Part shown: positions 6,207 through 41,988 of the stretch, piece by piece
How the letters are laid out: each line of letters begins with the position of its first letter
How positions within the stretch are numbered: position 1 is the stretch's first letter
Origin: an uncultured Gemmatimonadales bacterium
GTDB taxonomy: Bacteria > Gemmatimonadota > Gemmatimonadetes > Gemmatimonadales > GWC2-71-9
NCBI GenBank assembly: GCA_963844035.1
Contig: CAWJMT010000036.1
Coordinates: 160,001 to 224,000 of the forward strand
Reading direction: 5' to 3'
DNA length: 64,000 nucleotides
Notes under the pieces: generated by a model
The model's input: only the letters and a program-made list of their open reading frames with translations
The model's database searches: none
Told to the model about the DNA's origin: nothing
Program-made: the position numbers and the translations under genes

Positions 6207-6548
6207 ATGAACGTGCGGTCAGGGAACTGGAAAGCAGGCATCGTAGCGGCGGTGTTCGGGGTCGTTCTGGGGGCCGCACCAGCGGTTGCTCAGGCGCCTG
6301 ACGGGGCGGCGCTGTACAAGCAGTACTGCAAGGCGTGTCACGGCGCGAAGGGAATTCCGTCGAAGCAGATGGTGACGATCTACCCGGGCCTGAAGGCGTT
6401 GGCCGATAGCGGCGCGCTTGCCAAGCTTCCGACGGACACGGTGATCGCCGCGATGCAAAAGGGGAGAGGCACCACCATGAAGGCGTTCGGCGACGTGCTG
6501 TCGCCCGAGCAGATGGCGGCGGTAGCGAAGTTCACCAAGACGTTGTAG
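6207..6548 (+). CDS. Monoheme class I cytochrome c
   Basis: Signal peptide ending AVA-Q; GAALYKQYCKACHG; distal Met in MKAFG; convergent on the cytochrome b gene. Confidence 0.9.
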   Translation: MNVRSGNWKAGIVAAVFGVVLGAAPAVAQAPDGAALYKQYCKACHGAKGIPSKQMVTIYPGLKALADSGALAKLPTDTVIAAMQKGRGTTMKAFGDVLSPEQMAAVAKFTKTL

Positions 6549-6557
6549 CAGCCGCCG

Positions 6558-8018
6558 TCACGGGCGCAGGGGCGGTGGAAACGTATCGTAGAAGTGTGGC
6601 TCGGCGTTGCTGGTCCCCCGTAGCGCGGCCATGTACTGGGCCAGCTCTTCAATTTCCTGGTGCGAGAGTACCGGCGGCCCGAACGCGGGCATGTGCGACT
6701 CCGCATAGAACCGGCTCGGCTGCTCGATGAAGCTGTGCAGCCACCCGGCTGAGTGCCGCAACCCCACCGTCGAGAGGTCCGGGCCCACCTCGCCGCCCTG
6801 ACCAGCGATGAGGTGGCAGCCCCCGCATTGCTGCGACTGGTACAACGCGCGACCCGCTCTCTCCGCCGAGCTGAGTGCGCGGCCCGTCTCGGGGGCCGTG
6901 ATCGGGCCGCGGCCCGCCGCCCCGATCAGGATGCCGGCGCCGCCGAGAATACCGACCAAGCAGATCAATGCGAATGGCCGATGCAACAGGTTTCGGGTGC
7001 TCCCCCGATCAAAGAACGGCAGTCCCAGCAGAACCAGGATCAGCGCCGCCGGAACGCCGACCGCGATGAGGCTTTCCAGCGAGCCGGGAACAAGCTTGAG
7101 GAGCTGATAGATCGGCAGGAAGTACCACTCCGGCCGCGGCACGTAGGCCGTGTCGGTGGGGTCGGCTGGAGGATCGAGCGGAGCGCCCAGCGCGAACGCG
7201 AGCAGCACGATGACAACGACGGTGCCCGCCGATACGATGGCGTCCTTCCCCAACACGTCCGGCCAGAATCGCACCCCCCCCCGCTTGGACGCAGCGTACG
7301 CCTGTCGATAGTAGGCCGGATATCCTGGATCCCCGGTCCCCTTCGGCGCCCCCACCTCCAGGTCCTTCGGGCGCGCGGCGATGCCCTGGCGTACCACGAC
7401 CACCAGATGGAGAGCGACGAAGACAGTAATCACCAGCGGCAACCACAGGGCGTGGAAGGCGTAGAAGCGCGCCAGCGTCGCCGCCCCGAGCTCCGCGCCC
7501 CCGCGGAGTAGCGCGACCAACGCGGAGCCCAGCACGGGCGTCGTCCCGGCCATGTTCGTGCCGACGGCGGTGGCCCAGTACGCCTTCTGGTCCCAGGGTA
7601 GGAGGTATCCGGTGAAACTGAATACCATCACGATCAGGAACAGCCCCATTCCCACGATCCAGTTGACCTCGCGGGGATACTTGTACGCTCCCACGGCGAA
7701 TACACGAATCATGTGTGCGACAATGAGGACCACCATCACGCTCGCTGCCCAATGGTGGATCCCGCGCAGCAGGGAACCGCTCGCGACCTGAGTTTCGATG
7801 AACCGAATGCTCTCGTAGGCGTGATCGGGCGAGGCGGAGTAGTAGGTCGCCAGGGTCACACCGGTGATGACCTGCACGAGAAAGACGGTGAGCGTCGCGC
7901 TCCCCAGCGTGTGCCACCAGGTGAGGCGGTCGGGGACTTCGCGGTCGAGCAGATCTCGCTTGGCCCGCACGAGATCCAGTCGTTCGTCGAGCCAGCGGAA
8001 TGGGTTCATCATCATCAT
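6558..8018 (-). CDS. qcrB: Cytochrome b (b6 + subunit IV fused) with C-terminal monoheme cytochrome c; Rieske/cytochrome b complex
   Basis: His pairs RGIHHW..AHMIR and FHALW..LHL, GYLLPWDQ, PEWY, then CGGCH...GPDLS...MPAF. Confidence 0.92.
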   Translation of the reverse strand: MMMMNPFRWLDERLDLVRAKRDLLDREVPDRLTWWHTLGSATLTVFLVQVITGVTLATYYSASPDHAYESIRFIETQVASGSLLRGIHHWAASVMVVLIVAHMIRVFAVGAYKYPREVNWIVGMGLFLIVMVFSFTGYLLPWDQKAYWATAVGTNMAGTTPVLGSALVALLRGGAELGAATLARFYAFHALWLPLVITVFVALHLVVVVRQGIAARPKDLEVGAPKGTGDPGYPAYYRQAYAASKRGGVRFWPDVLGKDAIVSAGTVVVIVLLAFALGAPLDPPADPTDTAYVPRPEWYFLPIYQLLKLVPGSLESLIAVGVPAALILVLLGLPFFDRGSTRNLLHRPFALICLVGILGGAGILIGAAGRGPITAPETGRALSSAERAGRALYQSQQCGGCHLIAGQGGEVGPDLSTVGLRHSAGWLHSFIEQPSRFYAESHMPAFGPPVLSHQEIEELAQYMAALRGTSNAEPHFYDTFPPPLRP

Positions 8019-8019
8019 C

Positions 8020-8550
8020 TCAGGTCGAGGCCTTGGCGGTGACGCCCAGGTGGAAGTCCTTGTAGTCGGCATAGAGCACGCCGTCTTCGACCTTCACCTG
8101 TAAGGTGTCGAGCGGCCGCGGCGGCGGGCCCCCCAGGACGGCGCCGGTCGCGATCTCGAAAAAGCCCGAGTGGCACGGGCAGCGAAACACCTTCTTTTCG
8201 GTGTCGAGCGAGTAGTTGCACCCCAAGTGGGTGCAGCGTCCGTTGTAGACCGTGAAGTGCTCACCGTCCGCCGTGTAGATCCACACGTTGCGGAGCCGGC
8301 GGGTCTCCACCCAGGCGTCGTTGGCGGTATCGACGAAGTCCAGCTTGGTCGGGACCTCGGTCTCGAACTGGCTGACGTCCCCTAAGCGAACCCATTTCTC
8401 AGGTCGCTTTTGCCCGAAGACCGGCGAGAGGAATGCACGCGCCGCCGGAACGCCGGCGAGCAACGTGCTGAGAAATCCGCCCACCGCCGTGGCCCACTTG
8501 AGGAACGTGCGCCGGCTGGCGCGGACAACGTCCGCTGGTTGCACTGCCAT
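8020..8550 (-). CDS. qcrA: Rieske [2Fe-2S] subunit
   Basis: Tat motif SRRTFLK, TM helix, CTHLGC and CPCHSGFF boxes, GPPPRPL. Confidence 0.95.
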   Translation of the reverse strand: MAVQPADVVRASRRTFLKWATAVGGFLSTLLAGVPAARAFLSPVFGQKRPEKWVRLGDVSQFETEVPTKLDFVDTANDAWVETRRLRNVWIYTADGEHFTVYNGRCTHLGCNYSLDTEKKVFRCPCHSGFFEIATGAVLGGPPPRPLDTLQVKVEDGVLYADYKDFHLGVTAKAST

Positions 8551-8577: not shown

Positions 8578-9994
8578 CTACGGCGTCGGGATCGCGGTGC
8601 CGTGACAGACCGTGCACATCTGGGGATTCTTCTGCTTCAACCGCTCGGCGTCAAATCCCGGCCCGTGGGGGTTGAACCGGCGGCCCCCGTTGGCGGAGTG
8701 ACACGGGAGGCAGTCGCGCTCGACGTGGCAGGAGACGCAGGTCTCGAGGCTCTGCCGCGCGGCCTGGCCGTGGCCCCCAATGAAGTTGCTGTTGGCGTCA
8801 TGAAAGCCGCCCCGCAGTGTCCGCGAGCTCACCAAACCGGCCGTCGCGTGACAGGTCGTGCAGAAGCCCGCGGGATTGTGGCACTCGCTGCACGACGTCT
8901 CGCGCGCGTAGGCCGCCGCGGGGTGGCGGGCCAGGAATGCGGTCGGATGATATCCGGGCCCTGTCCCCGCATCCAGCCGGTGGCACTCGAGACAGTTGGA
9001 CTGCACGTGGCACCCGGCGCACGTGGCCGGGGTCCGGGCGGCCATCGCCCCGTGACCGCGCGCGAAATCCGGTCCGTGAAACACCGGACGGTGGCGCGCG
9101 ATGATCGCTCCGATCCCGCGCCCCGCGCCGCGGGTCGGGAGCGCCGCGGCGACGCGCGGCGTGCCCACGTGGCAGGTGAGGCAGCTCTCCCGTGCGTGGC
9201 AGCTCGAGCACTGAACCGGTGCACTGCGCGCCGTCGCGCCGTGGCGGTTGAGGAACGCCGGCTCGCGCGTGCGATGGGGGCGCTCTGAGGTGCACCACGA
9301 TTGCGGTCGAGCGTGGGTCACTCGGCAGCGCCTGGATCGCAGCGCGCTCCGGCGCGTCCACGTGGCAGGTGAGGCAGAACTCCCGCGCGTGACAGGTGGC
9401 GCAACTCGCCGCTACGGCGGCGTTCCTGCCACCGCTCTGCGCGGCCCTGGCGTGCCCGCCGCCGCCGACCCAACCCGCCTCCTGGTGCGAGGGCGGGGTG
9501 GGGAACCCGGCGATGTCTTCGCGCGTGAGCGCTTGCGCTTCCGCGAGGGGCAGGTGACAGACGGTGCATGCGGTGTCCGGCGCCGCGAGATGCGCCGTAC
9601 GCACGCCATGACAGTTGAGGCAGCGTCCAAAATTCACGCGCTGCACCGCCATCCACGTGCCGTCGTCCGAACCGTGACAGACCGTGCACCCCGGGGGCCC
9701 GGGTTGGCCTGCGCGCACCATTATCGGCACGAGGGCGTGATCGAACCGCAGATTCGTCCGTCGCGGTCCAGCCGGCGGACGCCAGTTCACCCGCGGCTTT
9801 ACCGTACCGTCATGACAGGTCGCGCACGCCGCGGGATCGGGATACAACGACCCCTCGCCGGTCGCCGGCTGCGCGTGACAGGCTGTGCAGGTGGGGAACA
9901 ACCGGCGGTGTTTCTCATGATCGAACCGCTGTGCCTGCGTCTGTTGCGCGGCCACTCCCCGCCCGGGGTGCACGCCCAAGGCGAGGGCTACCAT
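8578..9994 (-). CDS. Periplasmic multiheme cytochrome c, about 16 CxxCH, frameshift near 9270
   Basis: Signal-like N-terminus; 7 CxxCH in the ORF 8798..11233 frame and 9 in the ORF 8578..9321 frame. True start may be a few codons upstream. Confidence 0.85.
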
Positions 9995-10014
9995 CAGGAC
10001 GTGCCGCAGTGCGG

Positions 10015-11529
10015 CTATGGGGAGGTCCCCGGCGAGCGCGGCATCTGCAGCACGGCGGGCGGGAGTCGGCTGAGATCCGCGCCGCTTGCCAACACAAACA
10101 CGACCCGAGCGCTCACGCGCACCTGGTCCCAGCTGAACGCCGCGGCGTCGGGGCGCTTCCGATCCTCGTCGTACCGGCTGGCATCCAGCTCGACCCGCAC
10201 TCGAGACGACGACCGATACTGGGCATACACGCCATACGTGCGGACCGACGATTCGTCGAAGCGCAGCTCCAGGGGGCGATCCAGCATGCCGCCGTGGGCG
10301 GCGACCGTGAAGAAGTCGGCCGGCGCGTACGCAACGCCCGCTTCGAAGCCGCGCGACGATGCTCCCGGGCCGAATTCGGAGTGGTAGCCGCCTTGCACCG
10401 TCCACTTCGGGGGCAGGGTGTAGACGGCGTTCCAGGAGAACCGCCACCCGTCGCTCTCGACGTTCACCGTCGGCGTCGCGGCTTCGGCGTTCGCGAACGA
10501 GTAGCGCTCGCCGCTGGCGCGGAGCGCGAGATGGCGGATCGGCGTGACAGCAAGCGAAGCGTCGAACGCCGTGTAGGGCACCGGCGCGAATGCTCCCCAG
10601 ATGGTCCACAAGTCGAAGTGCGGGCGATAGCGCCGCACCGCGGCGGAGGCGTTGACGCGGCCGTTCGGTGCCGCGTACGCGAGCGTCCCTTCCGCGCTGC
10701 CCCACCACCCTTGCGCCATGTCGTATTCGGCCCCGCCCGAGAGGGTCACGCCGCGATAGGGTCGTACGCCAGCGTCGACGCCGATTCGTTCCGCCACGAA
10801 GTAGTGGACGCTTGGGTCCACCTCGCGCTCGTAGGTGAGCCTGACGTCCCCGTGAGACGTGGTCCAGCCGGCACCGCCGCCGGCGACGACCATCCGCTCC
10901 GGCGGGCGGTACTCGTCGAGCGGGTTCAGCGCCGGGCTGGTGACGGGAAGCACCGAGCCGCGCCACAGCCCCCAACCTCCGTAGCCCGTGACATCGAGGC
11001 CGAGGCGGCGGTCGCGCAGGGTGAGCCGGCCGCCGTCGAATCCGGTGAGCCCGAACCGTGTCGCCACCGTCTGTCGGCCCAGCTGGACGGTCATGCGCTC
11101 CACCGCGTATTGCGCGTAGCTCTCGAGCAGCTGCGCCGATGGCTCTGTCCCGGGCCAGGGATCGGCGCCGCCGAACGAGCCGGCGAGCCGTGCGATCGCG
11201 TGAATCGAGAGGCCCGGTAACCCGAGACCCCACACCGTCAGGTCTGCATTACCGGTCACCGGACGTGCGTCCTGCTGCAGCCCCGGCCGGAAGAAGCTGC
11301 AATAGGGGCTCCCCGCAACGCAGTCCACGGCGAAGCCGTCCGGCGTGGTCGGCCCGCCCGACAGCCCGGTCACGGTGTCGCCGACCGGGATGCTGTCCAG
11401 CTGGACGCCGCGGTAGGCCACGGCCTGCGCGCGGGTGTCGACGCGCAACCGGTAGCCCTGCGCCAGCCCGGACCGGGGGAGGGCGATCGCGAGAATCAGC
11501 AGCGGCGCCGCGATTCGGCGGGGGATCAC
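10015..11529 (-). CDS. Putative outer-membrane beta-barrel of a porin-cytochrome complex
   Basis: Signal peptide; alternating aromatic/Gly-rich strands (LLESYAQY, VTVQLGRQ-like, FDGGRLTL, LSGGAEYD, WTVQGGYH); flanked by multiheme genes; GTGA overlap with upstream gene. Confidence 0.75.
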   Translation of the reverse strand: MIPRRIAAPLLILAIALPRSGLAQGYRLRVDTRAQAVAYRGVQLDSIPVGDTVTGLSGGPTTPDGFAVDCVAGSPYCSFFRPGLQQDARPVTGNADLTVWGLGLPGLSIHAIARLAGSFGGADPWPGTEPSAQLLESYAQYAVERMTVQLGRQTVATRFGLTGFDGGRLTLRDRRLGLDVTGYGGWGLWRGSVLPVTSPALNPLDEYRPPERMVVAGGGAGWTTSHGDVRLTYEREVDPSVHYFVAERIGVDAGVRPYRGVTLSGGAEYDMAQGWWGSAEGTLAYAAPNGRVNASAAVRRYRPHFDLWTIWGAFAPVPYTAFDASLAVTPIRHLALRASGERYSFANAEAATPTVNVESDGWRFSWNAVYTLPPKWTVQGGYHSEFGPGASSRGFEAGVAYAPADFFTVAAHGGMLDRPLELRFDESSVRTYGVYAQYRSSSRVRVELDASRYDEDRKRPDAAAFSWDQVRVSARVVFVLASGADLSRLPPAVLQMPRSPGTSP

Positions 11530-13458
11530 GAGCCGCCATCCTCCCGCAGGTGAGTCTGGAATGCTTCGGGGCTGCTCCCGAAATGGCACAGCGTGCATTC
11601 CTTGTCCCGGTAATGCTCCTGCCGCGCTGCGTGACATGTGAGGCACAAGCCCCGGTCGGGAACGAGCCGCGCGACGATCGCGGCATCGTGGCATGCGTCG
11701 CAGGCGGTGTGCGCTTCCGCAGGGGGTGCATGCGCCGCACGCACGGCTGTGGATCCGCCGTCGTTGTGACACACGGCGCACGGTTTCCCCGCCGCGTGGT
11801 GGTTGTCATGACACGCGGCGCACGTCGCGACCGCCGGCTGCGGCTCGAGGGTGGCGGGCGTGGTGTGACAGGTCACGCACTTCAGGGTGCGGTGCCGGTC
11901 GTGCTCGAAACGGGCAGGGTGGAGCCGCGGCTCGCTGCCGGCTACGGCGACGCGCACGGCAACCGAGTCAGGCCGCGTCACTTCGCTCGCGGCGTGGCAC
12001 TTCGCACAGTCGCTCGTTTGCGGCGCCTGGTGGTGGCAGATCTGGCACCCCCGGGGGGCTTCGAACGTGAGGCGGTTGCGCGCGCTCTGCGACGCGTGGC
12101 AGGTGATGCACGAGAATTTCTTGTGGAGGCCGTGCGGGAAGCTGTCGGCGGCCGCCTCACCGCCGCGCGGGTCGCCCCCCGCCGGCGGACCCCCAAAAAA
12201 AGGTCCGTGCCCAGAGTCCTCATCCGGGCTCCCCCGGGATGCAAGGCGCAGCGGGGGTGATGTGGTGAGGTGCGACACCCGCCGCAACGCCGCCGCGGTA
12301 TCGAACGGCAGCGGGGGATTCATCCCCTTCCCGCCGCGGCGTTGCTTGACTTCGGCGTGGCAGCTGGCGCAGTCGCTCGGATCGACTTTGGCGTGATGGG
12401 GCTCGTGACACAGCGTGCAGTTCTCGCCCACCCTGCGGTGGTTCGTGCCGACGTGAAAGGCGTCGGACCGCCAGTCGGCATGGCATTTGGCCGAGGTGCA
12501 GGTGCGCGCCGCTTCGGCCGGGCTCGCCTGCGTATGGGGATTGTGGCAATCACCGCAGGTGCCCCGGTGCGGGTCGCGCGCCGGGTCGAACTCGGCGAGC
12601 ACAGCCTGCATCTCGTGACACGAAAGGCACTGCTTCATGCTGGGGACGAGCGTACCGCGCGCAGAGTCGCGCGTCGCAAGCAGGGGGACTTCCGCCGTGA
12701 AGCGATGGCACACGACACAGTGCAGATCCGTCTGATCTCGCATCTTGGCCAGCGTTGATCTCCATGCGCGCATGGCATCCGGACTGGGCGCATGTCGCGT
12801 TCACCGGAACGAAGCGATGGACCTCCATGCCGTGACACGTGACGCACTGCACGTTCTTGAGCGCGCTGGAATCGGACTCGAGGTGGGTGCGGTGACCGGC
12901 CGTGGAGGCGATGCGCTGCCACTTCTCCTTCGCGTTGCCCTGGACGTGGCAGCTGCTGCACACGCTCGTCGCCACCTTGGCGTGCGTGCCGATCTCGGTC
13001 GGCCGGTCGGCGACCCATAGATAGAGCTGCCGCATGCTGGCGAACATCGATTGCTGATGGCAGTTGTGGCACTCGAGCGAGTCGTGTTTGGAGCCGGCGA
13101 ACCGCTGAAACGGCGCGTTCATCACGTGGCAGCCGGTGCAGAAGCCGTTGTTGTGATTCACGTAGTGCATGCTTACAGCGCCGCCGCCGGCAGCCGCGAG
13201 CACCACGACGCCCGCGCCTGCGGCGAGCCCGAGTTTGGTGCTGCGTGGCAGCGAGACGAGCCACAGGTAGATGGCGACGCGGGAGCGCCACAGCAGCGCC
13301 AGGACCGCCAGCGCGACCAGCACCCCGACGATGAATCCCGCGATTTGGAACCACTGAGGAAGATTGAAGAAGAACCGCAGCACGGCGGCGACGCCGCCGG
13401 GCAGCGGCGGCTGCCCGACGGCCACCTGCTGGGGTGTCACGCCTGACCCCTCTCCCAT
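11526..13458 (-). CDS. Membrane-anchored NapC/NirT-like multiheme cytochrome c, about 20 hemes, frameshift near 12750
   Basis: Two N-terminal hydrophobic helices, NGFCTGCHVM NapC-like first heme; 18 CxxCH plus 2 CxxxxCH across ORFs 12550..13458 and 11526..12773. Confidence 0.85.
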
Positions 13459-13485: not shown

Positions 13486-15081
13486 CTATCGGACGCTCAC
13501 CTTGAGCCCCGGCGGCGGCGTCGCACGGATTCGCAAGTCAAAGTTCGCCGGCGGCGTGAGGCCGTACGTCGTATGGATCGCCGCGATCGACGAGGTGAGC
13601 AGCGCCTCGAGCAGGAATGGATTGTGCACTCCGTTTCCCGACGCCGCGTGGGCGGTGAAGCCGTTGCCCAGCACCCGGCCGTTCAGGAAGTACGCGCGGT
13701 CGTCCGTCGCCGCGAGCGCGGCGTTGTACAGTGTGCCCTTGGCGACCGTCGTGGTCGTGCTGCGGAAGTTGATCGGGGCCGAATCCGCGGCCGTTGCTCC
13801 CGGCCGCATGGCCCGCGCGACGAGCTGCGGCACCAAGCCGCCGTCGGTTGAATCGATGATGGCGTTGGCGTTCAAGTCGGTCCAGATCTGATCGAGCTGG
13901 TTGTTCAGCGTGCCGATTTCGGACGTGTATGCCGACATCGCGGTCTGCGTGGACGAGTGGCATCCGGAACTGACGCAGCCGGAGAAATCGCGTTGCGCGG
14001 TTGCGCAGGTCCCGGGCACCGGTATGCCGTTCGCATCCTTGCAGGGGATCGCGTCGAACAGGTGACCGACGCTCTGGAACTGGAAGGCACCGGTGGCCGC
14101 GTCGGTGATCGTCGTCCGGACCACGTGGCAGGTCGCGCACAGCCGCTGGTTCTGGCCGGTGCCGTGGCTGCTCACGATGTTGTTCGTGTCGTAGGTGAAG
14201 CCCGGCGGAATCCAGCCCGCGTTCTGTCCGATCACCAGGAAGCCCTGCGCGCCGTGCGGTCCGCGCGCCGAGGAGGTCGCGCTCGCGGCGCTCCAGGGCG
14301 GGGTCGCGCTACGAGCATGGCACTTGATGCAGAGATTGTCGGTCGTCGGCGTGGAAACCGATGCCCGCAGCTGGTGCTCGTACGGCGACCCGTGCGGGTC
14401 GTGGCACACGGAGCACACGATGCGCTGATGGGTCGTGTCGCTCTTCTCGAGCGTAGTTGGCCTCGGTGTCCCCAAACCGTATCGCGATCGCGGCCTTCCC
14501 TTCGTGGCAGGGCGCGCAGGACGCGTTCGCGGCCGGCAGACGCGAATCCGGGGCCGGACCCGTGGGCGGACTGGACCCACTGATCCACGAACGGCTCGTG
14601 CGTTCCCGTGTGGCAGCCGCCGCATCCGTTCGCCAGCGCGGTATCGACGTGGATCGATGCCAGCGGCTGGTTCGTGGTGATGTCGGGGTTCTCCGCGTGA
14701 GTGAGCCCCGGCCCGTGGCAGCTCTCGCACTGCACATCGTGGTAGGCTGAATCGGGCACCACCGTGTAGCCGGCGGGCTTGCCGACGCGTGTTGCCCAGC
14801 TGCGAGACGGTGTGGCAGGCGTTGCAGGATGAATTCGCATGGCCGGAGGCCTGCAGGTCCATCCAGGCACTAGCGTGCTTCGTCGCGCCCCACGACGCCT
14901 GCACGCCGGAGTGGCAGTTGCCGCACGTCGTCTGCTTGGTGCTCACCGTGAAATAGCCGAGAAAGCCGGCCGCCGCGTCAGGCGGCGGATTGAACGGCGG
15001 CCTTTCGACGTAGGTGATCGTCTCCTCGGTACACGCGCCAAGCGCCAGCACCGCGAGGATCACTGCGGGACGCAGCCTCAT
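13486..15081 (-). CDS. Multiheme cytochrome c lipoprotein, about 9 hemes, compensating frameshifts at about 14450-14790
   Basis: Lipobox LALGAC; CGNCH, CNACH, CSVCH, CIKCH, CATCH, CVSSGCH in frame; CESCH, CGGCH, CAPCH in alternative frames. Confidence 0.85.
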   Translation of the reverse strand: MRLRPAVILAVLALGACTEETITYVERPPFNPPPDAAAGFLGYFTVSTKQTTCGNCHSGVQASWGATKHASAWMDLQASGHANSSCNACHTVSQLGNTRRQARRLHGGARFSLPRCAVRELPRAGAHSRGEPRHHHEPAAGIDPRRYRAGERMRRLPHGNARAVRGSVGPVRPRVRPRIRVCRPRTRPARPATKGRPRSRYGLGTPRPTTLEKSDTTHQRIVCSVCHDPHGSPYEHQLRASVSTPTTDNLCIKCHARSATPPWSAASATSSARGPHGAQGFLVIGQNAGWIPPGFTYDTNNIVSSHGTGQNQRLCATCHVVRTTITDAATGAFQFQSVGHLFDAIPCKDANGIPVPGTCATAQRDFSGCVSSGCHSSTQTAMSAYTSEIGTLNNQLDQIWTDLNANAIIDSTDGGLVPQLVARAMRPGATAADSAPINFRSTTTTVAKGTLYNAALAATDDRAYFLNGRVLGNGFTAHAASGNGVHNPFLLEALLTSSIAAIHTTYGLTPPANFDLRIRATPPPGLKVSVR

Positions 15082-15810: not shown

Positions 15811-15999
15811 GAACTCCTCCGCTTCTTGGTTGGGTACCGGCGTGGGGAACGATCCCGTCCGGCGCGTGAAGGCTTTGGAAGGTCGGGTGAGGGTTCGGCA
15901 CGTGTCAACTCGCACCACTCGGTGCCTCTTGTGACGCCCTAGAATGCGACGAATCGGCGACCTTCGCCAGGGTCTCGGACCACGCCACGCGCGTGCGCA

Positions 16000-21652: not shown

Positions 21653-21662
21653 GGCTAGGGAG

Positions 21663-32452: not shown

Positions 32453-34155
32453 AGTCGTCGTCGACCCGATCACCCGTATCGAAGGCCACCTCCGCATCGA
32501 GGCGCAGGCCGACGCCGGCAAGATCACCAACGCGTGGGCCACCTCCACGCAGTTCCGCGGCATCGAAATCATCATGCAGGGGCGCGATCCGCGCGACGCG
32601 TGGGCCTTCACGCAACGCATCTGCGGCGTGTGCACCGTCGTCCACGCCGTCGCTTCCTGCCGTGCTGTGGAGGACGCGCTCGACATCAAGATTCCGCCCA
32701 ACGCCAACCTGATCCGCAACCTGATTCACGGGATGCAGTTCGTGCAGGATCACGTGATGCACTTCTATCACCTGCACGCGCTCGACTGGGTGGACGTCGT
32801 GAGCGCGCTCTCCGCCAAGCCATCGGAGACGGCGGCGATCGCGAAATCCGTTTCGCCCTGGCCCAACAACTCGGAGACGTACTTCGCCGAAGTGCAGAAC
32901 CGGCTGAAGACGTTCGTCGGGAGCGGGCAGTTGGGAATATTCGCCAACGGCTACTGGGGGCACCCGGCGTACAAGCTGCCCCCCGCCGTGAACCTGCTGG
33001 CCGTGGCGCATTACCTCGAGGCGCTCGACTGGCAGCGCGACGTGATCCGGGTGCACACGATCTTCGGCGGCAAGAACCCCCACCCGAATTTCCTGGTCGG
33101 GGGGATGGCATCGGCGATCAATCTCGACAGCCGGATGACGATCAACGCGGCACGCCTGGTCGAGATCCATGGCATGATCGCGCGCGCCCAGCGGTTCGTG
33201 GAGCAGGTGTACTACCCGGACCTGATGGCGATCGCCGGCTTCTACAAGGAGTGGGCCGGGATCGGAGGCGGCACCGGCAACTACCTCGCCTGCGGCGAAT
33301 TCCCCGACGGCGATGTGCGCGACATCGACTCGCTCTACTTTCCGCGCGGCATCATCCTGGGCAAGGACCTGACCAAGGTCTGGCCGTACGACCACAAGCA
33401 GGTGCAGGAGTACATCAACAGCTCCTGGTACGAGTACTCCAAGGGGGATGAGGCCGGCCTGCATCCGTGGGAGGGCGAAACGAAGGCGAAGTACACGGGT
33501 CCCAAGACCCCCTGGACCTATCTGCAGGGGGAGAAGAAGTACTCGTGGATGAAGACGCCCCGCTACGAGGGCCGCGCCATGGAGGTCGGGACCGCTCGCG
33601 CGCATGCTGGTGGCGTTCTCCGCGGGGCACGAAGACGTGCGGCACATGATCAAGGAATTGATGGACCGGCTGGATGTCGGTCCCGCCGCCCTGTTCTCCA
33701 CCTTGGGACGGACTGCGGCGCGCGGCGTGGAGACTGTGTTGCTCTCGCGGCGGTTGTCGCACTGGTACGATGCCCTGGTCGCCCGCATCAAGGGTGGCGA
33801 CACCCAGACGTTCAATGGCGACAAGTGGGACCCGGGGAAATGGCCGGCAAAGGCCCAGGGCTACGGCTACCTCGACGCGCCGCGCGGGGCGCTCGGGCAC
33901 TGGGTGCAGATCGAGGACCAGAAGATCTCCCGCTATCAGTGCGTCGTCCCGAGTACCTGGAACTGCTCGCCGCGCGATGCGAAGGGGGTTCCGGGGCCCT
34001 ACGAGGCTGCGTTGATGGATAACCATCCGCTGGTCAAACCGGACCAGCCGATCGAGATCCTGCGCACGATTCACTCGTTCGACCCGTGCATGGCGTGCGG
34101 CGTGCACGTGCTCGACGCCACCGGGAATCTCATCACCTCGGTGCAGGTCCAATGA
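32439..34155 (+). CDS. hyaB: Group 1 [NiFe] hydrogenase large subunit, frameshift near 33590
   Basis: DPITRIEGH, L1 QRICGVCTVVH, L2 SFDPCMACGVH plus cleavable C-terminal tail. Confidence 0.96.
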
Positions 34156-34895
34156 GCGCCGGGGGCGGGAAGGCCGGCAGCTCCTTCGCCCAGAAGCTCC
34201 AGCCGCCGTCGGGCAACTACCGCTGGGTGTACCTGTGGGAGTGGCCGATCCGGGCAATGCACTGGATCGCGGTCCTGTCGATCCTGGTGCTGGTGGTGAC
34301 CGGGTTCTATATCGGCGCTCCGTATTTCGTCCAGAGCGGAGAGGCGAGCAGCCACTACCTGATGGGCCGGATGCGGTTCCTCCACTTCGCGGCGGCGGGA
34401 CTGTTCGTTGCCACGGCGATCGTGCGGGTCTATTGGCTCCTGGCGGGGAATGAGTTCGAGCGCTGGACCGCGCTCTTCCCCGTGTCCAGGCAGGACTGGA
34501 TCAACATGTGGAAGCAGACCAAGTACTACCTGATGATCCAGCCGGAGAAAGCGCCCCATTACCTCGGGCACAACCCGATCCAGCAGCTGAGTTACACCAG
34601 CCTGTATCTCGTGGCCGCGACGCAGGTGATCACCGGGTTCGCGATGTACGGCCAGTCACGCCCCGGCGGCCTGTGGTACACGCTGTTCGGTTGGGTCATT
34701 CCGTTCGCCGGTGGTATTCAGGTGGTGCATTTCATTCATCACGTCTTGTCGTGGGTGTTCCTGATCTTCCTCCCGGTCCACCTCTACCTCGCGCTGCGTG
34801 CCGATATCCTGGAGCGCACCGGGACGATCTCGTCGATCATCAGCGGCGGCCGGTTTGTTCGCACCGATGTGGACTATGTCGACCAGCCCAAGTGA
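34152..34895 (+). CDS. hyaC: Hydrogenase b-type cytochrome subunit
   Basis: WEWPIRAMHW, RFLHF, GHNPIQQ, HFIHH, VHLYL. Confidence 0.94.
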   Translation: MSAGGGKAGSSFAQKLQPPSGNYRWVYLWEWPIRAMHWIAVLSILVLVVTGFYIGAPYFVQSGEASSHYLMGRMRFLHFAAAGLFVATAIVRVYWLLAGNEFERWTALFPVSRQDWINMWKQTKYYLMIQPEKAPHYLGHNPIQQLSYTSLYLVAATQVITGFAMYGQSRPGGLWYTLFGWVIPFAGGIQVVHFIHHVLSWVFLIFLPVHLYLALRADILERTGTISSIISGGRFVRTDVDYVDQPK

Positions 34896-35401
34896 GGCCT
34901 CCCCGCCCGTCACGGTGGTGATCGGGGTCGGCAATCCGCTCATGGGTGACGACGGCTTGGGGCTCGCGGTTCTGGAGCGATTGCGGGACGGGTGGCACCT
35001 TCCAGAAGACGTAGAGCTTGTCGATGGCGGGACCTGGGGCATGAATCTGCTGCCGGTGATCGAGGACGCAGGGCGGGTGCTGCTGATCGATGCCATCGAG
35101 ATCGGCGCGGCGCCCGGGACCGAGATCATTCTCCCGCGCGATCGGTTGCCGCGCTATCTGGCCACGAAGATCTCCCCGCATGAAGTCGACCTGCGCGACG
35201 TGCTGGCGCTGGCCGAGCTGCGGGGGACGCTGCCCGAATACACCACGGCCATCGGACTCCAGCCGGCGCGCATCGAGCTCTCGGAGGAGCTCAGCGAGGT
35301 GGTGCAGCGATGGGCTCGATCAGCTGGTGGCGACCGCGGTCCGGGTGCTCGCGGAGTGGGGACACGTCTGCACGCCACGGGTCGCGGCCGTCGATGCATG
35401 A
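34876..35401 (+). CDS. hyaD: Hydrogenase maturation protease, frameshift near 35310
   Basis: GVGNPLMGDDGLG, VDGGT, LLIDA, SPHE. Confidence 0.92.
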
Positions 35402-35654
35402 AATGAGCCTGGCGCTCGAGGTCTGCCGTATCGCAGAGGAGCAAGTCGGCCCCGCGGCGGCCGGGCGCGTGGTGGCCGTGGGACTCGAAGTGGGCGACGA
35501 CGCCGGCGTCGAGGTTTCGAGTCTCGAGTTCTGTCTCGAGAGTCTGCTCTCGACTCCGCCGTTCCGCGGTGCGCGACCCCGGATCACGCGCCTGCCCGGC
35601 GACGTCCTGCGGGTGAGCTACGTGGACGTGGATGATGGCAGTCCGGACGATTGA
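35394..35654 (+). CDS. hypA: Nickel metallochaperone HypA, short form without Zn finger
   Basis: MHEMSLA, V.LEVG..AGVE..SLEFC, C-terminal GDVLRVSYVDVD; no CxxC pairs. Confidence 0.82.
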   Translation: MHEMSLALEVCRIAEEQVGPAAAGRVVAVGLEVGDDAGVEVSSLEFCLESLLSTPPFRGARPRITRLPGDVLRVSYVDVDDGSPDD

Positions 35655-36304
35655 CGTGCGGGAGCGGGTCATGGCCAGGAGCGATGAGCTCGCGGCCGGT
35701 GTACGCCGCCGCCTTCAGGCCGCGGGCGTCCTCACGTTCAACCTCGTCTCCTCGCCGGGCTCTGGAAAGACGACGCTGCTCGAGCGGACCCTCGCTGATC
35801 TCGGCGCGGAAATCGCCATCTCCGTCGTGACGGGAGATGTCCAGACGCAGAACGACGCCGACCGGCTGGCGCGCCACACCGACCGGCTGGTGCAGGCGGT
35901 GGTGACGAACGGCGCCTGCCACCTCGATGCGCGCCAGGTGGCGACCGCGCTCGATGAGGTGGACCTCGACCCGCACCCGCCTCCTGTTCATCGAGAACGT
36001 GGGCAATCTGGTGTGCCCCGCCGGCGTGGGATCTGGGCGAGGACGCCAAGATCGTGGTGTTCTCGGTCACCGAAGGCGAAGACAAGCCGGTCAAGTACCC
36101 CAAGATCTTTCGCCAGGCCCGCTACGTGGTACTGAGCAAGATGGACCTGCTGCCCGCACGTGCCTTTCAGCGTCGAAAAAGCGGTGGACTTCGCGCGCCA
36201 GGTCAATCCCACCATCAAGTTTCTGTCTACGTCGGCGCTCGCGCCGGACGGGATGCGTCGAGTGGTACGGGTTCCTCCGCTCGCAGATCCGGCGGACCGA
36301 ATGA
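35635..36304 (+). CDS. hypB: Hydrogenase GTPase HypB, several frameshifts
   Basis: [44 protein letters not shown]. Confidence 0.92.
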
Positions 36305-38646
36305 CGGCGTCCATGCCCGCTGCTGCGCTCGAGGCCGTGCGGCTCCACGTGACGGGGGTGGTGCAGGGTGTAGGGTTCCGGCCGTTCGTGCACCGGCTGG
36401 CGACGCGATACGGTCTCGCCGGCTGGGTCCTGAATGCCGCGGGCGACGTGCAGATCGACGTCGAGGGATCGCCTGAGGATCTGTCCGCGTTCATGCGGGC
36501 GCTCTGGGTGGAGACGCCGCCGCTGGCTCGGATCGAGAGCGTCGAGCGCACGCCTGGCACCGCGAACGGACTTCACACCTTCACGATCCGGAAAAGCCGG
36601 GAGGGGCCTGACCGCCGGCAGCCCATCGCGTCCGACGTGGCGGTGTGCGCGGCCTGCGAAGCCGAGCTCGTGGACCCCGCGAATCGGCGCTTCCACTATC
36701 CGTTCATTACGTGTACCGATTGCGGCCCGCGGTTCACCATCATCGACGCCATGCCGTATGACCGCGAGCGGACCAGCATGCGGGCGTTCGCGCCGTGCCC
36801 CGATTGCCTGCGCGAATACCATCGGCCCGAGGACCGGCGCTATCACTCCGAGACGAACAGTTGCCCCGCTTGTGGGCCGAGAGTGTGGTTGGAGTTCGCC
36901 GGTAGCCCCGGGCGTCAGCCCGGGGATACCGGGGTCAGGGGTGACTCCGATGCGATCCAGCGCGCGGCGGATCTCCTGAAGGCGGGGAGCATCGTGGCGA
37001 TCCGCGGGCTCGGCGGGTTCCATCTGGCCGTGGATGCGTCCAACGAACAGGCGGTCCAGCGGCTGCGTGCGCGGAAGAGCCGCGAGGCGAAGCCTCTCGC
37101 CGTCATGGTTCGCACGCTCGACGAAGCCCGCGCATTGGCGCACATCGCTCCCGGTGAGGCCGAGATCCTGACTTCGCGGGAACGCCCCATCGTTCTGCTC
37201 AGGCGTTCTGACTCCGGGCTGACGCCGGGGGCTCTCGCCCCCTCGCTCGCGCCGGGCCTCGACACCATCGGCGTGATGCTTGCCTACACGCCGTTGCACC
37301 AGCTCCTGCTCGAGGCGGCGGGCTGTCCCCTGGTGATGACGAGCGGCAATCGCAGCGAGGAGCCGATCGCAACGGCGAACGACGACGCGCGGCAGCGCCT
37401 GGCGGGGATCGCCGACGCGTTCCTGCTGCACGATCGGGAGATCGTGGTGCGGTGCGACGATTCCGTGGTGCGTCTGGCGGGTGACGCACCACTGTTTCTG
37501 CGACGCGCCCGCGGGTTTGCTCCGCTGCCGCTCGAACTGCCCGTAGCGAGTCCGGTGCCCCTGGTCGCCGTTGGCCCGCATCTCAAGAACACGTTCACCC
37601 TGGTGCACGGCCGCCGCGCATTCGTGAGCCAGCATATCGGCGACCTCGAGAACCTCGAGACCCTCGAGCACTTTCAGGCGACCCTCGGCGCCTACGGCCG
37701 CCTGTTCCACGTCGAACCCGAGATGGCTGTGTGCGATCTGCATCCAGCCTACCTGTCCACGCAGATCGCCACGGAGCTCGGGCTCGAGCGGATCATTCGC
37801 GTGCAGCATCACCACGCGCACATCGCGGCGGTGCTCGCCGAGCATGGCGTCACCGAGCGCGCCGTCGGCATCGCCTACGACGGGACCGGCTACGGGGACG
37901 ACGGCAACGTGTGGGGCGCGGAGACGCTGGTGGCCGATCTTGCCGCCTATACGCGCGTGGGCCGGCTCCGCTACGCACCGCTTCCGGGAGGCGATCGCGC
38001 GGCCCGTACGCCGTGGCGCGCGGCGCTCGGCTACCTGTCGCTCGAGCCCGATGCCGCGGCGGCGTTCGCCACCGCGTTCCGCGACGTGCCGGAGCGGGAG
38101 CGATCGCTCGCGACCCAGCAGATCGCGCGCGACCTGAACTCCCCGCTCGCGTCCTCGATGGGGCGGTTGTTTGACGCGGCGGCCGCGGTGCTCGGCGTGC
38201 GCGCGGTGGCGCAGTACGAGGGCCAAGCGGCGATGGAGCTCGAGGCGCTGGCCGCGCGGCGTCCGGCCACACCGTTGCCGTTCCCACTCATCGAGGGCGG
38301 CGACACGGCCTGGGAGCTCGATCCGATCCCGTTGCTGGTCGCCCTCGGCGAGCGGCGTCGGGCCGGCGACGCGACTCCGGATCTGGCCGCCGCGTTTCAT
38401 GAGAGCGTCGCGGCTGCGACGGCGGACCTCGCGCTTCGCGCGGCGACGCTGGCAGCAACGCGGACCGTGGCGCTCGCCGGGGGGTGCTTTCAGAATGCCC
38501 GGCTGCTGGTTTCGCTGCGCTCGCGCCTCGAGGCCCGCGGCCTCCGGGTGCTCGTGCCGCGCCAGCTCGGACCGAACGATGGGGCGGTCAGTTACGGGCA
38601 GGCGGCGGTTGCCGCGGCCCTCTTGCAGCGTGAACGCGGGACCTAG
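36301..38646 (+). CDS. hypF: Carbamoyltransferase HypF
   Basis: [11 protein letters not shown], Zn fingers (CTDCGPR, CPACGP), [21 protein letters not shown]. Confidence 0.97.
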
Positions 38647-38663
38647 AGAAAGCTGAGGCTACC

Positions 38664-38975
38664 ATGTGTCTCGGAGTGCCAGGGCGAGTCGTGCAGGTCC
38701 ATGGCCTGACCGCGACCGTCGATTTCTGGGGTGTGCGGCGGGAGACGCGGCTCGACGTGGTCGATGAGCCCGTCGGGCCCGGCGACTACATCCTGAACCA
38801 TGTGGGGTTCGCGATCCGCAAGATCCCGGCGGGCGAGATCCAGGAGACGCTCGCGTTGTACGAGCTGCTGCTCAAAGAGGCCGAGGGCGACATGATGGCC
38901 GCGGACGTCCGGGGCGAGATCACCGCCGCGCCCGACCGTGCGCCGGTCGAGCCGCCGGGAGGCCCGCATGCTTGA
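38664..38975 (+). CDS. hypC: HypC chaperone
   Basis: MCLGVPG...GDYILNHVGFAI. Confidence 0.95.
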   Translation: MCLGVPGRVVQVHGLTATVDFWGVRRETRLDVVDEPVGPGDYILNHVGFAIRKIPAGEIQETLALYELLLKEAEGDMMAADVRGEITAAPDRAPVEPPGGPHA

Positions 38976-40101
38976 TACCGCGCTCACCGGGACCGCGAGC
39001 GAGCTCAAGTTCCGCGATCCCGCGAAGGCACAGGCGCTCTCCCGGGCGCTCGAGCGGATCTGCGGCGAAGTGGGGCGCGCGCCGGTGTCCGTGATGCACG
39101 TGTGCGGCAGCCACGAGCAGTCGATCGCCAAGTTCGGGCTGCGGGCGGTGCTGCCGCGGGCGCTGAACGTGATCATGGGGCCGGGCTGTCCCGTCTGCGT
39201 GACCGACCTCCCCGAGGTGGACGAGGCGGTGGTGCTGGCGCAGGACGGCGTCCGGATCGCCACCTACGGGGACATGCTCAAGGTGCCCGGGACGTCCCGG
39301 TCCCTGGCGGACGCGCAGACGGCGGGCGCGCGGCTCGACGTGGTGTACAGCGCCACGCAGGCGGTGGAGCTGGCGCGCGACACGACCGATGAAGTGGTCT
39401 TCTTCGCGAGCGGCTTCGAGACGACGGCGGTGGCGACGGCGGCCGTGGTGCTCGCCGATCCGCCCCCGAACTTCTCGGTGCTGTCCGCGCACAAGTACAT
39501 CCCGCCGGTCATGGAGATCGTGGCCGAGATGCCGGGGACCAAGGTCGAGGGGTTCCTCGCCGCGGGGCATGCCGCGACGATCACGGGCTCGGCGATCTTC
39601 GAGCGGTTCGTCGAGCGCCACAAGATTCCGGTGGTCGTGGCCGGGTTCGAGCCGCTCGACATCCTCGCCGCCTTGGTGAAGCTGGTCGAGCTGGTCCGGG
39701 ATGCCACGCCCCGCGTCGTCAACATGTTCCCCCGCTGCGTGACCCCGGAGGGAAATCGCAACGCGCAGGAGCAGCTGTGGCGCGTGTTCCGGACGGTGGG
39801 CGGCCAGTGGCGCGGCATCGCCCACGTGCCCAACGGCAACCTGCGGCTGCGGGACGAGTTCGCCCACGTGGACGCGCGGAAGAAGTTTCAGATCGACGTC
39901 CGGCGCCTGTGGAACCACGCGCCGTCCACGCTCACCCAGCTCTGCATCTGCGGCGACATCATGGCGGGCATCGCCTCGCCCAGTGGCTGCTCGCTGTTCG
40001 GGAAGGAGTGCGTGCCCGACACGCCGGTGGGCGCATGCATGGTGTCGAGCGAAGGCACCTGCCGGATCTGGCACCAGTACGGGGGACATCCCGATCTATG
40101 A
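38968..40101 (+). CDS. hypD: HypD
   Basis: MHVCGSH, GPGCPVC, GFETT, PVGACMVSSEGTC. Confidence 0.96.
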   Translation: MLDTALTGTASELKFRDPAKAQALSRALERICGEVGRAPVSVMHVCGSHEQSIAKFGLRAVLPRALNVIMGPGCPVCVTDLPEVDEAVVLAQDGVRIATYGDMLKVPGTSRSLADAQTAGARLDVVYSATQAVELARDTTDEVVFFASGFETTAVATAAVVLADPPPNFSVLSAHKYIPPVMEIVAEMPGTKVEGFLAAGHAATITGSAIFERFVERHKIPVVVAGFEPLDILAALVKLVELVRDATPRVVNMFPRCVTPEGNRNAQEQLWRVFRTVGGQWRGIAHVPNGNLRLRDEFAHVDARKKFQIDVRRLWNHAPSTLTQLCICGDIMAGIASPSGCSLFGKECVPDTPVGACMVSSEGTCRIWHQYGGHPDL

Positions 40102-41154
40102 GCGCGACGCTGAAGGCCGGAGCGATGGTGGGGTCCGGAGACCTCGTGACCATGAAGCACGGCGCGGGCGGGCGCGCGATGCGCCGCCTCATCGAGGAGA
40201 CGCTCAGCGCCGGCTTCGTGGACACTCCCGGTGGATGGATTCGGCCTCGCCGCCATGGACGACGGCGCGGCGCTGCGCGTCGGCGACCAGTGGCTCGTGG
40301 TCACGACCGACTCGCACGTCGTGCATCCGATCGTGTTCCCCGGCGGCGACATCGGACGGCTGGCGATCGCGGGGACGGTGAACGATCTCGCCATGATGGG
40401 GGCCACCGAACCGCTCGGCCTCACCAGCGCGATCATCGTGGAGGAGGGGTTCCGGCGCGCCGACCTGGAGCGGGTCCAGCGCTCGATGCAGGACACCTGC
40501 CGCGAGGCGGGCGTCACGATCGTCACCGGCGACACCAAGGTGATGGGCCGTGGCGAGCTGGACGGGCTCGTGATCAACACCACCGGGGTAGCGATGACCA
40601 GGAGCCTGGTGCGGGACGCCGGGTTGCAGCCGGGCGATCGCATCATCGTGACCGGCACGATCGGCGATCACGGGATCGCGCTCATGGCCAAGCGGCACGG
40701 CCTGGCGTTCGAAGTCGAGCTCACGTCGGACGTCGCCCCGATCAACGGGCTGATCCGCGGCGCGCTGGCGGCCGTTCCGGGCGCCATCACCGCCATGAAG
40801 GACCCGACCCGCGGCGGCGTGGCCAGCGCGCTGCACGAGATGGCCGAGAAGAGCGGCGTCTGCATCGTCATCGAAGAGCCGCAGGTGCCCGTGAACCCGG
40901 TCGTCCGCTCGGCGGCCGAGATGCTGGGGCTCGACCCGTTTCACATCGCGAACGAAGGGAAGGCGCTGCTCGGCGTCCGGCCGGAAGCGGCGGCGGCGGT
41001 GCTCGCCGCGCTCCGGGCCCATCCGCAAGGCGGCGCCGCGGCGATCGTGGGCACGTGTCTGGCCGACCACCCCGGCCGTCTGGTGCTCGACACCGGGATC
41101 GGCCGGCGGCTGATGACCGAGTCGGAGGGCGAGCCCCTGCCGAGGATCTGTTGA
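40098..41154 (+). CDS. hypE: HypE, frameshift near 40230
   Basis: HGAGG, TTDSHVV.P..FPGGDIG, GDTKV, DPTRGG, C-terminal PRIC. Confidence 0.95.
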
Positions 41155-41988
41155 TGGACCATATCCGGATGACGTGCGACGGCGCGGTGGGGATCATCAC
41201 GATCGATCGGCGCGAGCGGTTCAACTCGCTGGACGTCGCTACGGCGCAGGAGTTTCGCAAGGCCGGCCTGCAGTTCGCCCGCGACGAGAAGCGTGCGCTG
41301 CGTGGTGATCCGCGGCGCCGGCGGCGTGTTCTGCAGCGGGGCGGATCTCAAGTACATCCGCGAGCAGGGGGACGAGCGCGACTTCGGCTACCTGCAGCCC
41401 GACGGCGTCGGCCCTGCGGCGGGGTTCGGGGAGAGCTTCAAGCAGATCCTCGAGTACATCCACAGCACGATTTCGGAGATCAAGCGGGCGCCCAAGCCGT
41501 TCATCGCCGCGGTGGACGGGATCGCCGCCGCCGGCGGGTTCGGGATCGCGATGGCCTGTGATCTCGTGTACGCGTCGGCGCAGGCGAGCTTCGAGTGGGC
41601 GTATCACAAGACGAGCCTCACGGGTGCCGAGAGCTCGACCTTCTTCCTTCCCCGTCTCATCGGCCTGCGCAAGGCGATGGAGCTGGTGCTGCTCAATCCC
41701 CGCCTCACGGCGCAGGCCGCGACGGAGATGGGGTTGATCACCGGGGTGTTCCCCGCGGAGACGTTCGAGGCCGACGTGCTCGACGTCGCGCGACGCCTGG
41801 CCGCCGGACCCACGCGCGCCTACGCCGTCGCCAAGAGCCTGCTGAATCAGGCGGCCGGTGTGGACCAGCTCGACTACCATCTCGACGAAGAGCTGCAGCA
41901 CCTCGCCCGTATCGCCGACAGCCCCGATTTCGCGGAAGGGTTACGGGCGTTCTTTGCCAAGGAAGCGGCGGCATTCCAGGGGCGGTAA
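41154..41988 (+). CDS. Enoyl-CoA hydratase/isomerase (crotonase, PaaG-like), frameshift near 41290
   Basis: FCSGADL, KPFIAAVDGIAAAGGFGIAMACD, FLPRLIG; TGATG coupling to hypE. Confidence 0.88.

Follow-up and report, generated by a model that had tools for sequence, protein, structure and literature searches.

Two phylum-wide surveys describe Gemmatimonadota as mainly oxygen-respiring bacteria (PMC9426454) with an F-type ATPase (PMC10581226), and the available text of both mentions no V/A-type ATP synthase, uptake hydrogenase or porin-cytochrome conduit. All three systems lie close together in an uncultured Gemmatimonadales bacterium (GenBank assembly GCA_963844035.1, here G000; 3.47 Mb in 39 contigs, 84% complete). 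The question is whether the parts of this energy island belong together, and what they would do for their host. The window, meaning the whole stretch of DNA analysed, comprises 64,000 nucleotides of contig CAWJMT010000036.1 (G000:C36:160001-224000). The energy island is conserved and genuine, and a shared operator motif indicates that it is probably co-regulated. On balance, we believe that it is a low-oxygen regulon that would carry electrons from H2 through menaquinone to a conduit, a spare aa3 oxidase or both, and that would add a second proton-coupled ATP synthase. No description of such an island or regulon in Gemmatimonadota turned up in the literature search, whose coverage did not extend to subscription papers or to supplementary hydrogenase and ATPase tables.

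Conservation and linkage of the modules

An earlier note, made from the letters alone, had placed an uptake hydrogenase, two MenA-like genes, a V/A-ATP synthase and a multihaem conduit in this stretch. Pfam and NCBIfam profile searches found each of them where it had been placed. The hydrogenase genes hyaA-hyaB-hyaC occupy positions 31307..34895 (+), and the V/A-type operon lies at 16000..24274 (-). Between atpD and the start of the gene that follows it, a dihaem cytochrome gene, there are 189 bp, which confirms that the V/A-ATPase is directly upstream of and co-directional with the multihaem operon at the distance of about 190 bp first noticed.

The modules were counted in 221 genomes of the family, of which 220 were drawn at a completeness of at least 90% and the other is G000. 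G220 and G020 (unpublished) are single rows in the tallies, and no claim depends on either alone. The porin gene was found in 158 genomes, the hydrogenase in 90 (96 for hyaA before six matches at 44-49% identity were excluded) and the V/A gene atpD in 72. The hydrogenase accompanied V/A in 69 of 72 cases, and V/A occurred in 3 of the 131 hydrogenase-free genomes. The porin was present in 88 of the 90 hydrogenase genomes; 67 genomes had the porin alone and 61 had none of the three. Among the genomes with a genus label (201/221), V/A and hydrogenase varied together in 14 of 14 informative genera. In genus g19 they covaried despite lying on different contigs.

Linkage within 40 kb of one contig was found for V/A and hydrogenase in 32/69 genomes, for V/A and porin in 28/67, and for hydrogenase and porin in 36/82. 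All three modules fell within 40 kb in 21/64 genomes, spread over 14 of 27 genera. Most of the misses are modules on different contigs of fragmented assemblies, and porin positions are missing for 11 genomes. In the usual layouts, hyaA stands head-to-head with atpG or with the 8-haem cytochrome gene of the conduit. Genome G039, from another family, has all three modules within 25 kb in a different order. The trees of hyaA and atpB (31 genomes) group mostly by genus and are correlated (Mantel r 0.62), which fits long co-inheritance and is no proof of co-evolution. The grouping of hydrogenase, V/A-ATPase and conduit is beyond chance. The earlier note had asked for co-occurrence and linkage of four modules across genomes; three of them are nested and often linked across genera, and the MenA genes are the exception.

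Single-base frameshifts split many genes of the window, and intact orthologues of the split genes were found in relatives. At several of these places, contigs of near relatives lack one base. When compared with the proteins of G004, 9 of 34 island orthologues had frame changes, and among control orthologues taken from elsewhere in the genome the figure was 21 of 53. On these three grounds, the breaks are most likely assembly errors spread over the genome. A pseudogene island was considered and rejected, since genes beyond the island are split no less often.

A shared operator motif

A motif was found by expectation maximization upstream of hyaA in 51 loci. It consists of repeats of TGAA/TAAA...TTCA with an 11-bp period (TGA-N8-TCA), and its log-likelihood was 512 against 89-100 in shuffled sequences. 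In this training set, 48 of 51 regions upstream of hyaA reached at least 9 bits, compared with 1.2% of shuffles. The matrix used for scanning was built from 38 sites from outside the window's own genus, and the genome scan used a local background and masking of AT-rich DNA.

The best site of the G000 genome (24.9 / 24.7 bits) lies between atpG and menA1 (24334..24359, +). Another precedes hyaA (31196..31221, +; 14.2 bits with the matrix trained without its own genus), and the conduit operon is preceded by a degenerate copy (15867..15891) of 25 nt, one base shorter than in the orthologues. After masking, 11 of the 26 sites of at least 10 bits in G000 fell in C36:165,000-245,533, where 0.7 were expected; this boundary was drawn after the genes had been seen. 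G004 allowed a cleaner test: its island had 12 sites in the non-coding DNA (25.8 kb), and the control DNA (12.3 kb) had 0.

Sites were also counted in regions outside the training set. Where atpG does not face hyaA, a site was found in 8 of 11 cases. A conduit that follows atpD had a site in 18 of 25 rows (13/19 without duplicates), and a conduit elsewhere in 27 of 47 rows, which include four duplicate pairs and three internal genes. Upstream of hsp20 the proportion was 6/31. Internal control regions had none (0/104, 0/40, 0/40 and 0/32), and the background was 0.9% of 2138. The shared operator argues for co-expression of hydrogenase, V/A-ATPase and conduit. Because the gap between atpD and the conduit holds its own operator in most relatives, the conduit is probably transcribed separately from the atp operon; a single long atp-conduit transcript is disfavoured by the same 13/19. 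An FNR/CRP box was rejected for its wrong spacing. High-scoring sites outside the island (G000:C37:56964, C35:23121, C29:3135 and C37:207422) may mark further members of the regulon.

Hydrogenase, ATP synthase and menaquinone genes

The hydrogenase is a group 1 [NiFe] uptake enzyme by Pfam, NCBIfam and its motifs. Its small subunit gene hyaA (31307-32452, +; TIGR00391 450 bits, cut-off 179.5) encodes a Tat signal and a C-terminal anchor, and is followed by the large subunit gene hyaB (32439-34155, +) and the cytochrome b gene hyaC (34152-34895, +; TIGR02125 192, cut-off 121.5). Behind them come hyaD, hypA, hypB, hypF, hypC, hypD, hypE and an enoyl-CoA hydratase gene (34876..41988, +), so that the cytochrome-b-anchored hydrogenase with a full maturation set, read earlier from the sequence, is indeed present. 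A Tat-exported small subunit, the L1/L2 CxxC motifs and an adjoining cytochrome b are all found, as in group 1 respiratory [NiFe]-hydrogenases. Enzymes of the HyaABC type oxidise H2 in the periplasm and hand its electrons to quinone. The oxygen-tolerant group 1d is marked by an extra cysteine at the proximal cluster (CxCC); the proximal motif is ECSGC in the window and ECTGC in its relatives, both of the standard CxxC form and without the extra cysteine. With the G005 orthologue as query, the nearest PDB chain was 3MYR (780 bits), followed by Hyd-1 types (697-631). The gene order small-large-cytochrome fits HyoSLE, and the enzyme is called 1f-like by this layout. The enoyl-CoA hydratase family gene (41154-41988) is the last of the hyp operon in G039 and in several genera as well; a role as MenB was rejected (72 bits against a cut-off of 343).

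The V/A-type operon has the order G-I-K-E-C-F-A-B-D (Pfam; NF003235 604 bits, cut-off 349). Its K subunit is a single hairpin of 73 amino acids. In Enterococcus hirae K, Gln65 and Tyr68 are Na+ ligands; the ring subunit of the window lacks the full set, with Met and Leu at these two positions. Because both ligands are replaced, the enzyme is likely H+-coupled. The earlier note had called for a check for a separate F-type ATPase, and one was found in G000 on C27 and C4, which makes the V/A enzyme a second synthase. Searches of plasmids found no near relative of the hydrogenase or of the V/A genes, all matches being under 60% identity. The closest V-type operon there (59% for B) is on the Rubrobacter radiotolerans plasmid NZ_CP007515.1 (L263:9827-24368), between a universal stress protein (USP) gene, a GAF-GAF-LuxR gene and a P-type ATPase gene; no uptake hydrogenase is annotated in the 41 kb shown. 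From this context, V/A enzymes may turn up repeatedly in stress islands. The GAF-GAF-LuxR protein encoded beside this operon was considered as a DosS-like sensor and rejected.

The first MenA gene, a 1,4-dihydroxy-2-naphthoate (DHNA) prenyltransferase gene, lies at 24390..25259 (+; TIGR00751 127.4, cut-off 102.15). The second MenA-like gene is split (about 29272..30182, +; PF01040), and both pieces are under the TIGR00751 cut-off. MenA1 had matches in 12 of 61 genomes, and in 4 of 36 others in the family. No menA stands between hyaA and atpG in G002, G004, G015 and G026, and among the loci read only G001 and five genomes of genus g17 have MenA-like genes in the island. G000 encodes three MqnA/MqnD-family matches over cut-off and an MqnP-like prenyltransferase. 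The classical Men pathway was not found in this 84% complete genome, where the best MenD scored 69 bits (cut-off 244) and the best MenB 136 (cut-off 343). Gemmatimonadales favour the futalosine route (PMC9426454), and by its gene content G000 would make menaquinone in this way. MenA as a conserved fourth module, as first proposed, was rejected, since the islands of most relatives lack it; the search for a housekeeping menA turned up an MqnP-like prenyltransferase and futalosine genes, and no MenB or MenD over cut-off. The MenA pair appears to be a local insertion, perhaps for the salvage of outside DHNA. A near-equal MqnA/MqnD-family pair on different contigs (L081 and L082; G000:C11 and C25) may be a duplication or a mixture of strains.

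The porin-cytochrome conduit

From the V/A side, the conduit operon begins with a dihaem cytochrome c lipoprotein gene (15144..15810, -; frameshift at about 15600), which is optional and was found at 24 of 80 porin loci. It is followed by genes for an 8-CxxCH lipoprotein cytochrome with a lipobox-like LALGAC (13486..15081, -; frameshifted), an 18-CxxCH cytochrome with N-terminal membrane helices and a NapC/NrfH-like first domain (11526..13458, -; frameshift at about 12760, PF03264 weak), a predicted outer-membrane beta-barrel of about 22 strands with no plug domain (10018..11526, -; AlphaFold2 pLDDT 82.7) and a 16-CxxCH cytochrome with a signal peptide (8578..10015, -; frameshift at about 9270), whose 16-haem orthologues are intact. 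Haems were counted as CxxCH motifs. Next come a Tat-exported Rieske [2Fe-2S] protein (8020..8550, -; PF00355, PF10518; CTHLGC/CPCH), a bc-type quinol-oxidising cytochrome b with a PEWY motif and a fused C-terminal cytochrome c (6558..8021, -; PF00033, PF00032, PF13442), and, on the other strand, a monohaem cytochrome c with a signal peptide (6207..6548, +; PF13442/PF00034).

A large predicted outer-membrane barrel is encoded between multihaem cytochromes, which is the arrangement of a porin-cytochrome conduit. The barrel model aligned to the BtuB barrel alone, without the plug, with Z 18.4 (rmsd 4.4, 363 aligned) and to MtrB with Z 16.4 (rmsd 4.5, 361 aligned), below generic barrels; Foldseek returned generic barrels only, and no MtrB match was found among the Pfam or NCBIfam models. 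For the quinol side, an orthologue of the NapC/NrfH-like domain was compared with NrfH (2J7A, E 5.6e-5); only the helix and the first two haems aligned, and PF03264 stayed under its cut-off. NapC/NrfH domains and Rieske/cytochrome b proteins oxidise quinol.

The 16-haem gene lies beside the porin in 77 of 80 porin loci. On its upstream side the porin has either the 18-haem NapC-like gene (61/80) or an alternative block (16/80), never both. This block holds a Rieske protein, cytochrome b, 9-, 21- and 11-haem cytochromes and a cytochrome b561-like protein (L033:13108-20000, L041, L044 and L061-L062). Because the two quinol-side modules are interchangeable at porin loci, we suggest that the conduit links the quinone pool to the outer membrane. 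Nearly all of the 80 porin loci, from the closest porin relatives, are in Gemmatimonadales or Gemmatimonadota records; two loci (L123 and L142) are in records titled Vicinamibacterales and Bacillota, by transfer or through mislabelled bins.

Other multihaem genes were also seen. In G018, the genes that converge on the conduit (L048:8868-16074) encode a molybdopterin oxidoreductase together with 4Fe-4S, NrfD and small multihaem subunits. G021 has a block of similar size (L052:1723-8959) and additional 23- and 16-haem genes. A larger second multihaem cluster of G000 lies about 145 kb from the island (C36:15,700-23,300, L185); its two blocks have 59 CxxCH motifs and enclose a 411-aa gene.

Candidate regulator, sensor kinase and the wider island

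The island extends past the end of the window. About 7 kb beyond it lie a frameshifted gene for a DosT/DosS-like GAF-HisKA kinase (G000:C36:231358-232583), a gene for an OmpR-family regulator (C36:232661-233347; PF00072 and PF00486) and then one for a HAMP kinase. In a search of 58 genomes picked for good assembly or island carriage, the regulator had matches at 71-92% identity in 44 of the 48 other family genomes and in 0 of 9 from other families. Where regulator and module share a contig, they were no more than 75 kb apart in 23 of 27 cases; 17 matches were on other contigs. Of 25 regulator orthologues, 24 have the operator motif before the gene (0.6% of shuffles). Mainly because the motif precedes its own gene, as in self-regulation, the OmpR-family protein is likely the regulator that reads the motif.

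The best PDB matches of the G004 kinase were the GAF-A domains of DosT and DosS (2VZW, E 2.2e-41; 2W3D, E 4.6e-35). A His (HPPM) and a Tyr (GNLY) align with those of DosT/DosS, and this GAF motif stands directly upstream of the regulator in 20 of 25 loci. By our count, these residues would be the proximal His149 and the distal Tyr171. The GAF-A domain of DosS/DosT binds haem and gaseous ligands, with the His proximal and the Tyr distal (PMC4082495). The kinase had matches in 178 of the 221 family genomes, namely in 150/158 with the porin, 87/90 with the hydrogenase and 69/72 with V/A. Seven conduit genomes without a kinase match scored at most 3.7 bits before the conduit. A second DosT-like GAF kinase was seen in the G004 island (L251:4333-5568, G004:C7:74 kb), and a few further genomes have two or three kinase matches.

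The rest of the island resembles known stress gene sets. Positions 42237..64000 hold genes for a USP, two CBS proteins, a BON protein, a ribosome hibernation factor, a ferritin/Dps-like protein, a PRTase-erythromycin esterase and an extra GroEL. Operator sites in this part are at 42237, 44833, 46494, 52240, 56620 and 61279. Further on lies the operon of a second aa3-type (A-type haem-copper) oxidase (L238:2037-6902, G000:C36:240-245 kb), preceded by an operator site. This site lies between the operon and a divergent regulator gene, presumably Rrf2-like. A tRNA-Cys gene lies within the island (window 46357-46432). Elsewhere in this genome of 67% GC, a strongly AT-rich stretch (G000:C4, about 413,000-455,000) may be contamination, a chimera or a foreign island. 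A search of sequencing runs listed no RNA dataset, and the DNA datasets shared at most 0.18 of words, hence no habitat claim is made.

Proposed mechanism and alternatives

Under the low-oxygen reading, a fall in oxygen would activate the DosT-like kinase, a predicted haem sensor, which would in turn activate the OmpR-family regulator. The regulator would then induce all motif-bearing operons, including hydrogenase, V/A synthase and conduit. Periplasmic H2 oxidation would reduce menaquinone made by the futalosine route, and the quinol could be oxidised by the NapC-like protein and the outer-membrane conduit, or alternatively by the Rieske/cytochrome b pair, cytochrome c and the spare oxidase. 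The V/A enzyme, at what would be a higher H+/ATP ratio, would probably make ATP from the weaker proton gradient. Among these steps, we infer the binding of the regulator to the motif, the low-oxygen signal, the outward electron flow, the working of barrel and cytochromes as one wire, and the direction of the synthase. The chain proposed earlier, from H2 to an extracellular acceptor, holds in part: the modules are linked and share an operator, but the island reaches further than the earlier note had drawn it. With a second aa3 oxidase in the island, electrons do not have to end on an extracellular acceptor.

Several observations weigh against the low-oxygen reading. Neither hydrogenase nor V/A was found in 67 of 158 conduit genomes, and so the conduit does not need H2. 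Linkage is loose: among 19 well-assembled genomes at least one pair was linked in 17 and all three modules fell within 40 kb in 6, and G166 and G169 have no modules linked. HydDB gives the role of group 1f as unresolved (PMC5037454). The window's own conduit gap reaches a best matrix score of -2.6, and the regulator of G000 is the sole miss among the orthologues (7.4 bits). G126 and G169 have the regulator and no site before the conduit, and G056 has a 15.6-bit motif before hyaA and no kinase match. The kinase is near-universal in the family and occurs in 28 of 63 porin-free genomes; its link with the porin inside genera is weak (9 positive, 3 negative). Six of the seven kinase-free conduit genomes come from other families, so that this contrast is confounded with descent. 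The CusS-like HAMP kinase behind the regulator is a possible real partner.

The most specific form of the low-oxygen reading has H2 respired onto minerals or humics through the 22-strand conduit of 8, 18 and 16 haems, with a DosT-like sensor and OmpR switch and a larger-ring V/A enzyme working at low proton motive force; we hold this form only tentatively. Within the same regulon, the electrons of H2 might instead go mainly to trace O2 through menaquinone, Rieske/cytochrome b-c, cytochrome c and the second aa3 oxidase, with the conduit serving as a co-regulated overflow or taking electrons inward from reduced iron or humics. The second A-type oxidase operon with its motif site, the Rieske and cytochrome b-c genes after the conduit with a soluble cytochrome c adjoining, a cbb3 oxidase in the G039 island and the O2-linked roles reported for group 1f enzymes (PMC6896113) all point that way. 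We consider this route rather doubtful. The Rieske gene follows the porin in just 23 of 80 loci, some of which are cut short, hyaA faces the conduit across one promoter in many genomes, and the conduit comes with a quinol-side module of its own, in one of two forms (at 61 and at 16 of the 80 loci).

The modules could also be co-induced and work apart, as a dormancy kit: the V/A enzyme would then spend ATP to pump protons, the reverse of synthesis, and the hydrogenase would counter oxidative stress or recycle H2. Persistence genes do dominate the island (USP, CBS, hibernation factor, Hsp20, Dps-like), the Rubrobacter radiotolerans plasmid carries a related V-type operon next to a USP and a P-type ATPase, and HydDB labels group 1f 'oxygen-protecting' (PMC5037454). 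This explanation seems improbable to us, as it does not account for the near-absence of V/A without hydrogenase (3/131; 14/14 genera) though the rest of the regulon is far wider. Least probable of all, in our judgement, is another regulator or signal (the HAMP kinase might relay metal, envelope or pH stress), with co-occurrence produced by block deletion of neighbours. The regulator and the HAMP kinase do score best, under cut-off, with heavy-metal CusR/CusS-type models, and a metal signal could govern a nickel enzyme and P-type ATPases. However, nearly all loci have the GAF kinase before the regulator while the HAMP kinase behind it is apparently replaced in several, the motif stands before the regulator itself (24/25), and V/A and hydrogenase co-occur even where they are unlinked.

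If the low-oxygen regulon is real, these aerobes would switch to a spare energy chain as oxygen falls. If, in addition, H2 is respired onto minerals or humics, an abundant lineage of 'aerobic heterotrophs' would respire extracellularly and act as a sink for H2 that has gone unrecognised. The family-wide regulon, for which an operator is defined and a sensor and a regulator are proposed, and the near-obligate pairing of V/A and hydrogenase make three questions testable: the role of 1f-like hydrogenases, why some bacteria keep both F- and V/A-type synthases, and whether common soil aerobes respire extracellularly.

Comparison with known systems

Each module resembles a known system and departs from it. 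The V/A operon is like that of the Thermus thermophilus-type synthase in its nine subunits and its 73-aa single-hairpin ring subunit; the 73-aa PDB chains that match K are, we assume, from Thermus thermophilus. Unlike that enzyme, it is a second and apparently inducible synthase alongside a proton F-type one. The predicted conduit resembles Shewanella MtrCAB/CymA, with multihaem cytochromes flanking a large barrel and a NapC-like protein on the presumed quinol side. The MtrB barrel has 26 strands. Unlike Shewanella Mtr, the island conduit has about 22 strands, 8, 18 and 16 haems in place of decahaems, and the NapC-like domain fused to a long haem chain. In having Rieske/cytochrome b genes alongside, it is like the PCC4-type clusters, which carry petB/petC (PMC13264449, citing He et al. 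2017). The hydrogenase resembles group 1f HyoSLE and the 1f cluster of Deferribacter autotrophicus (PMC6896113) in its small, large and cytochrome subunits, its protease and the adjoining multihaem genes; unlike those systems, it shares a divergent promoter with the V/A-ATPase or the conduit.

The regulation is best compared with two low-oxygen responses. DosS/DosT sensors have tandem GAF-A/GAF-B domains, and DosR is a NarL-type regulator. The island kinase has one GAF, a HisKA and a HATPase domain, and goes with an OmpR/PhoB-type regulator and an operator of 11-bp period. It shares with the mycobacterial DosS/DosT-DosR system (PMC4082495) a GAF-A-like domain and a similar cargo (USP, Hsp20, CBS, cation ATPase), and unlike the DosR regulon its cargo adds hydrogenase, V/A synthase and porin-cytochrome conduit. 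By this analogy, the island system would work like Dos but is not a member of DosS/DosT-DosR. In Burkholderia cenocepacia, also an aerobe, the lxa locus (PMC3721108) likewise gathers low-oxygen genes into one island, with USPs, alpha-crystallin, a cation ATPase, two-component pairs and a shared motif, and the island cargo resembles both the DosR and the lxa gene sets. The lxa motif is FNR/Anr-like (TGA-N6-TCA), a form not found in the island motif with its TGA-N8-TCA and 11-bp period, and the available text lists no hydrogenase or conduit for lxa. Taken together, these comparisons suggest a low-oxygen regulon of the Dos and lxa kind with a new cargo of hydrogenase, V/A synthase and conduit.

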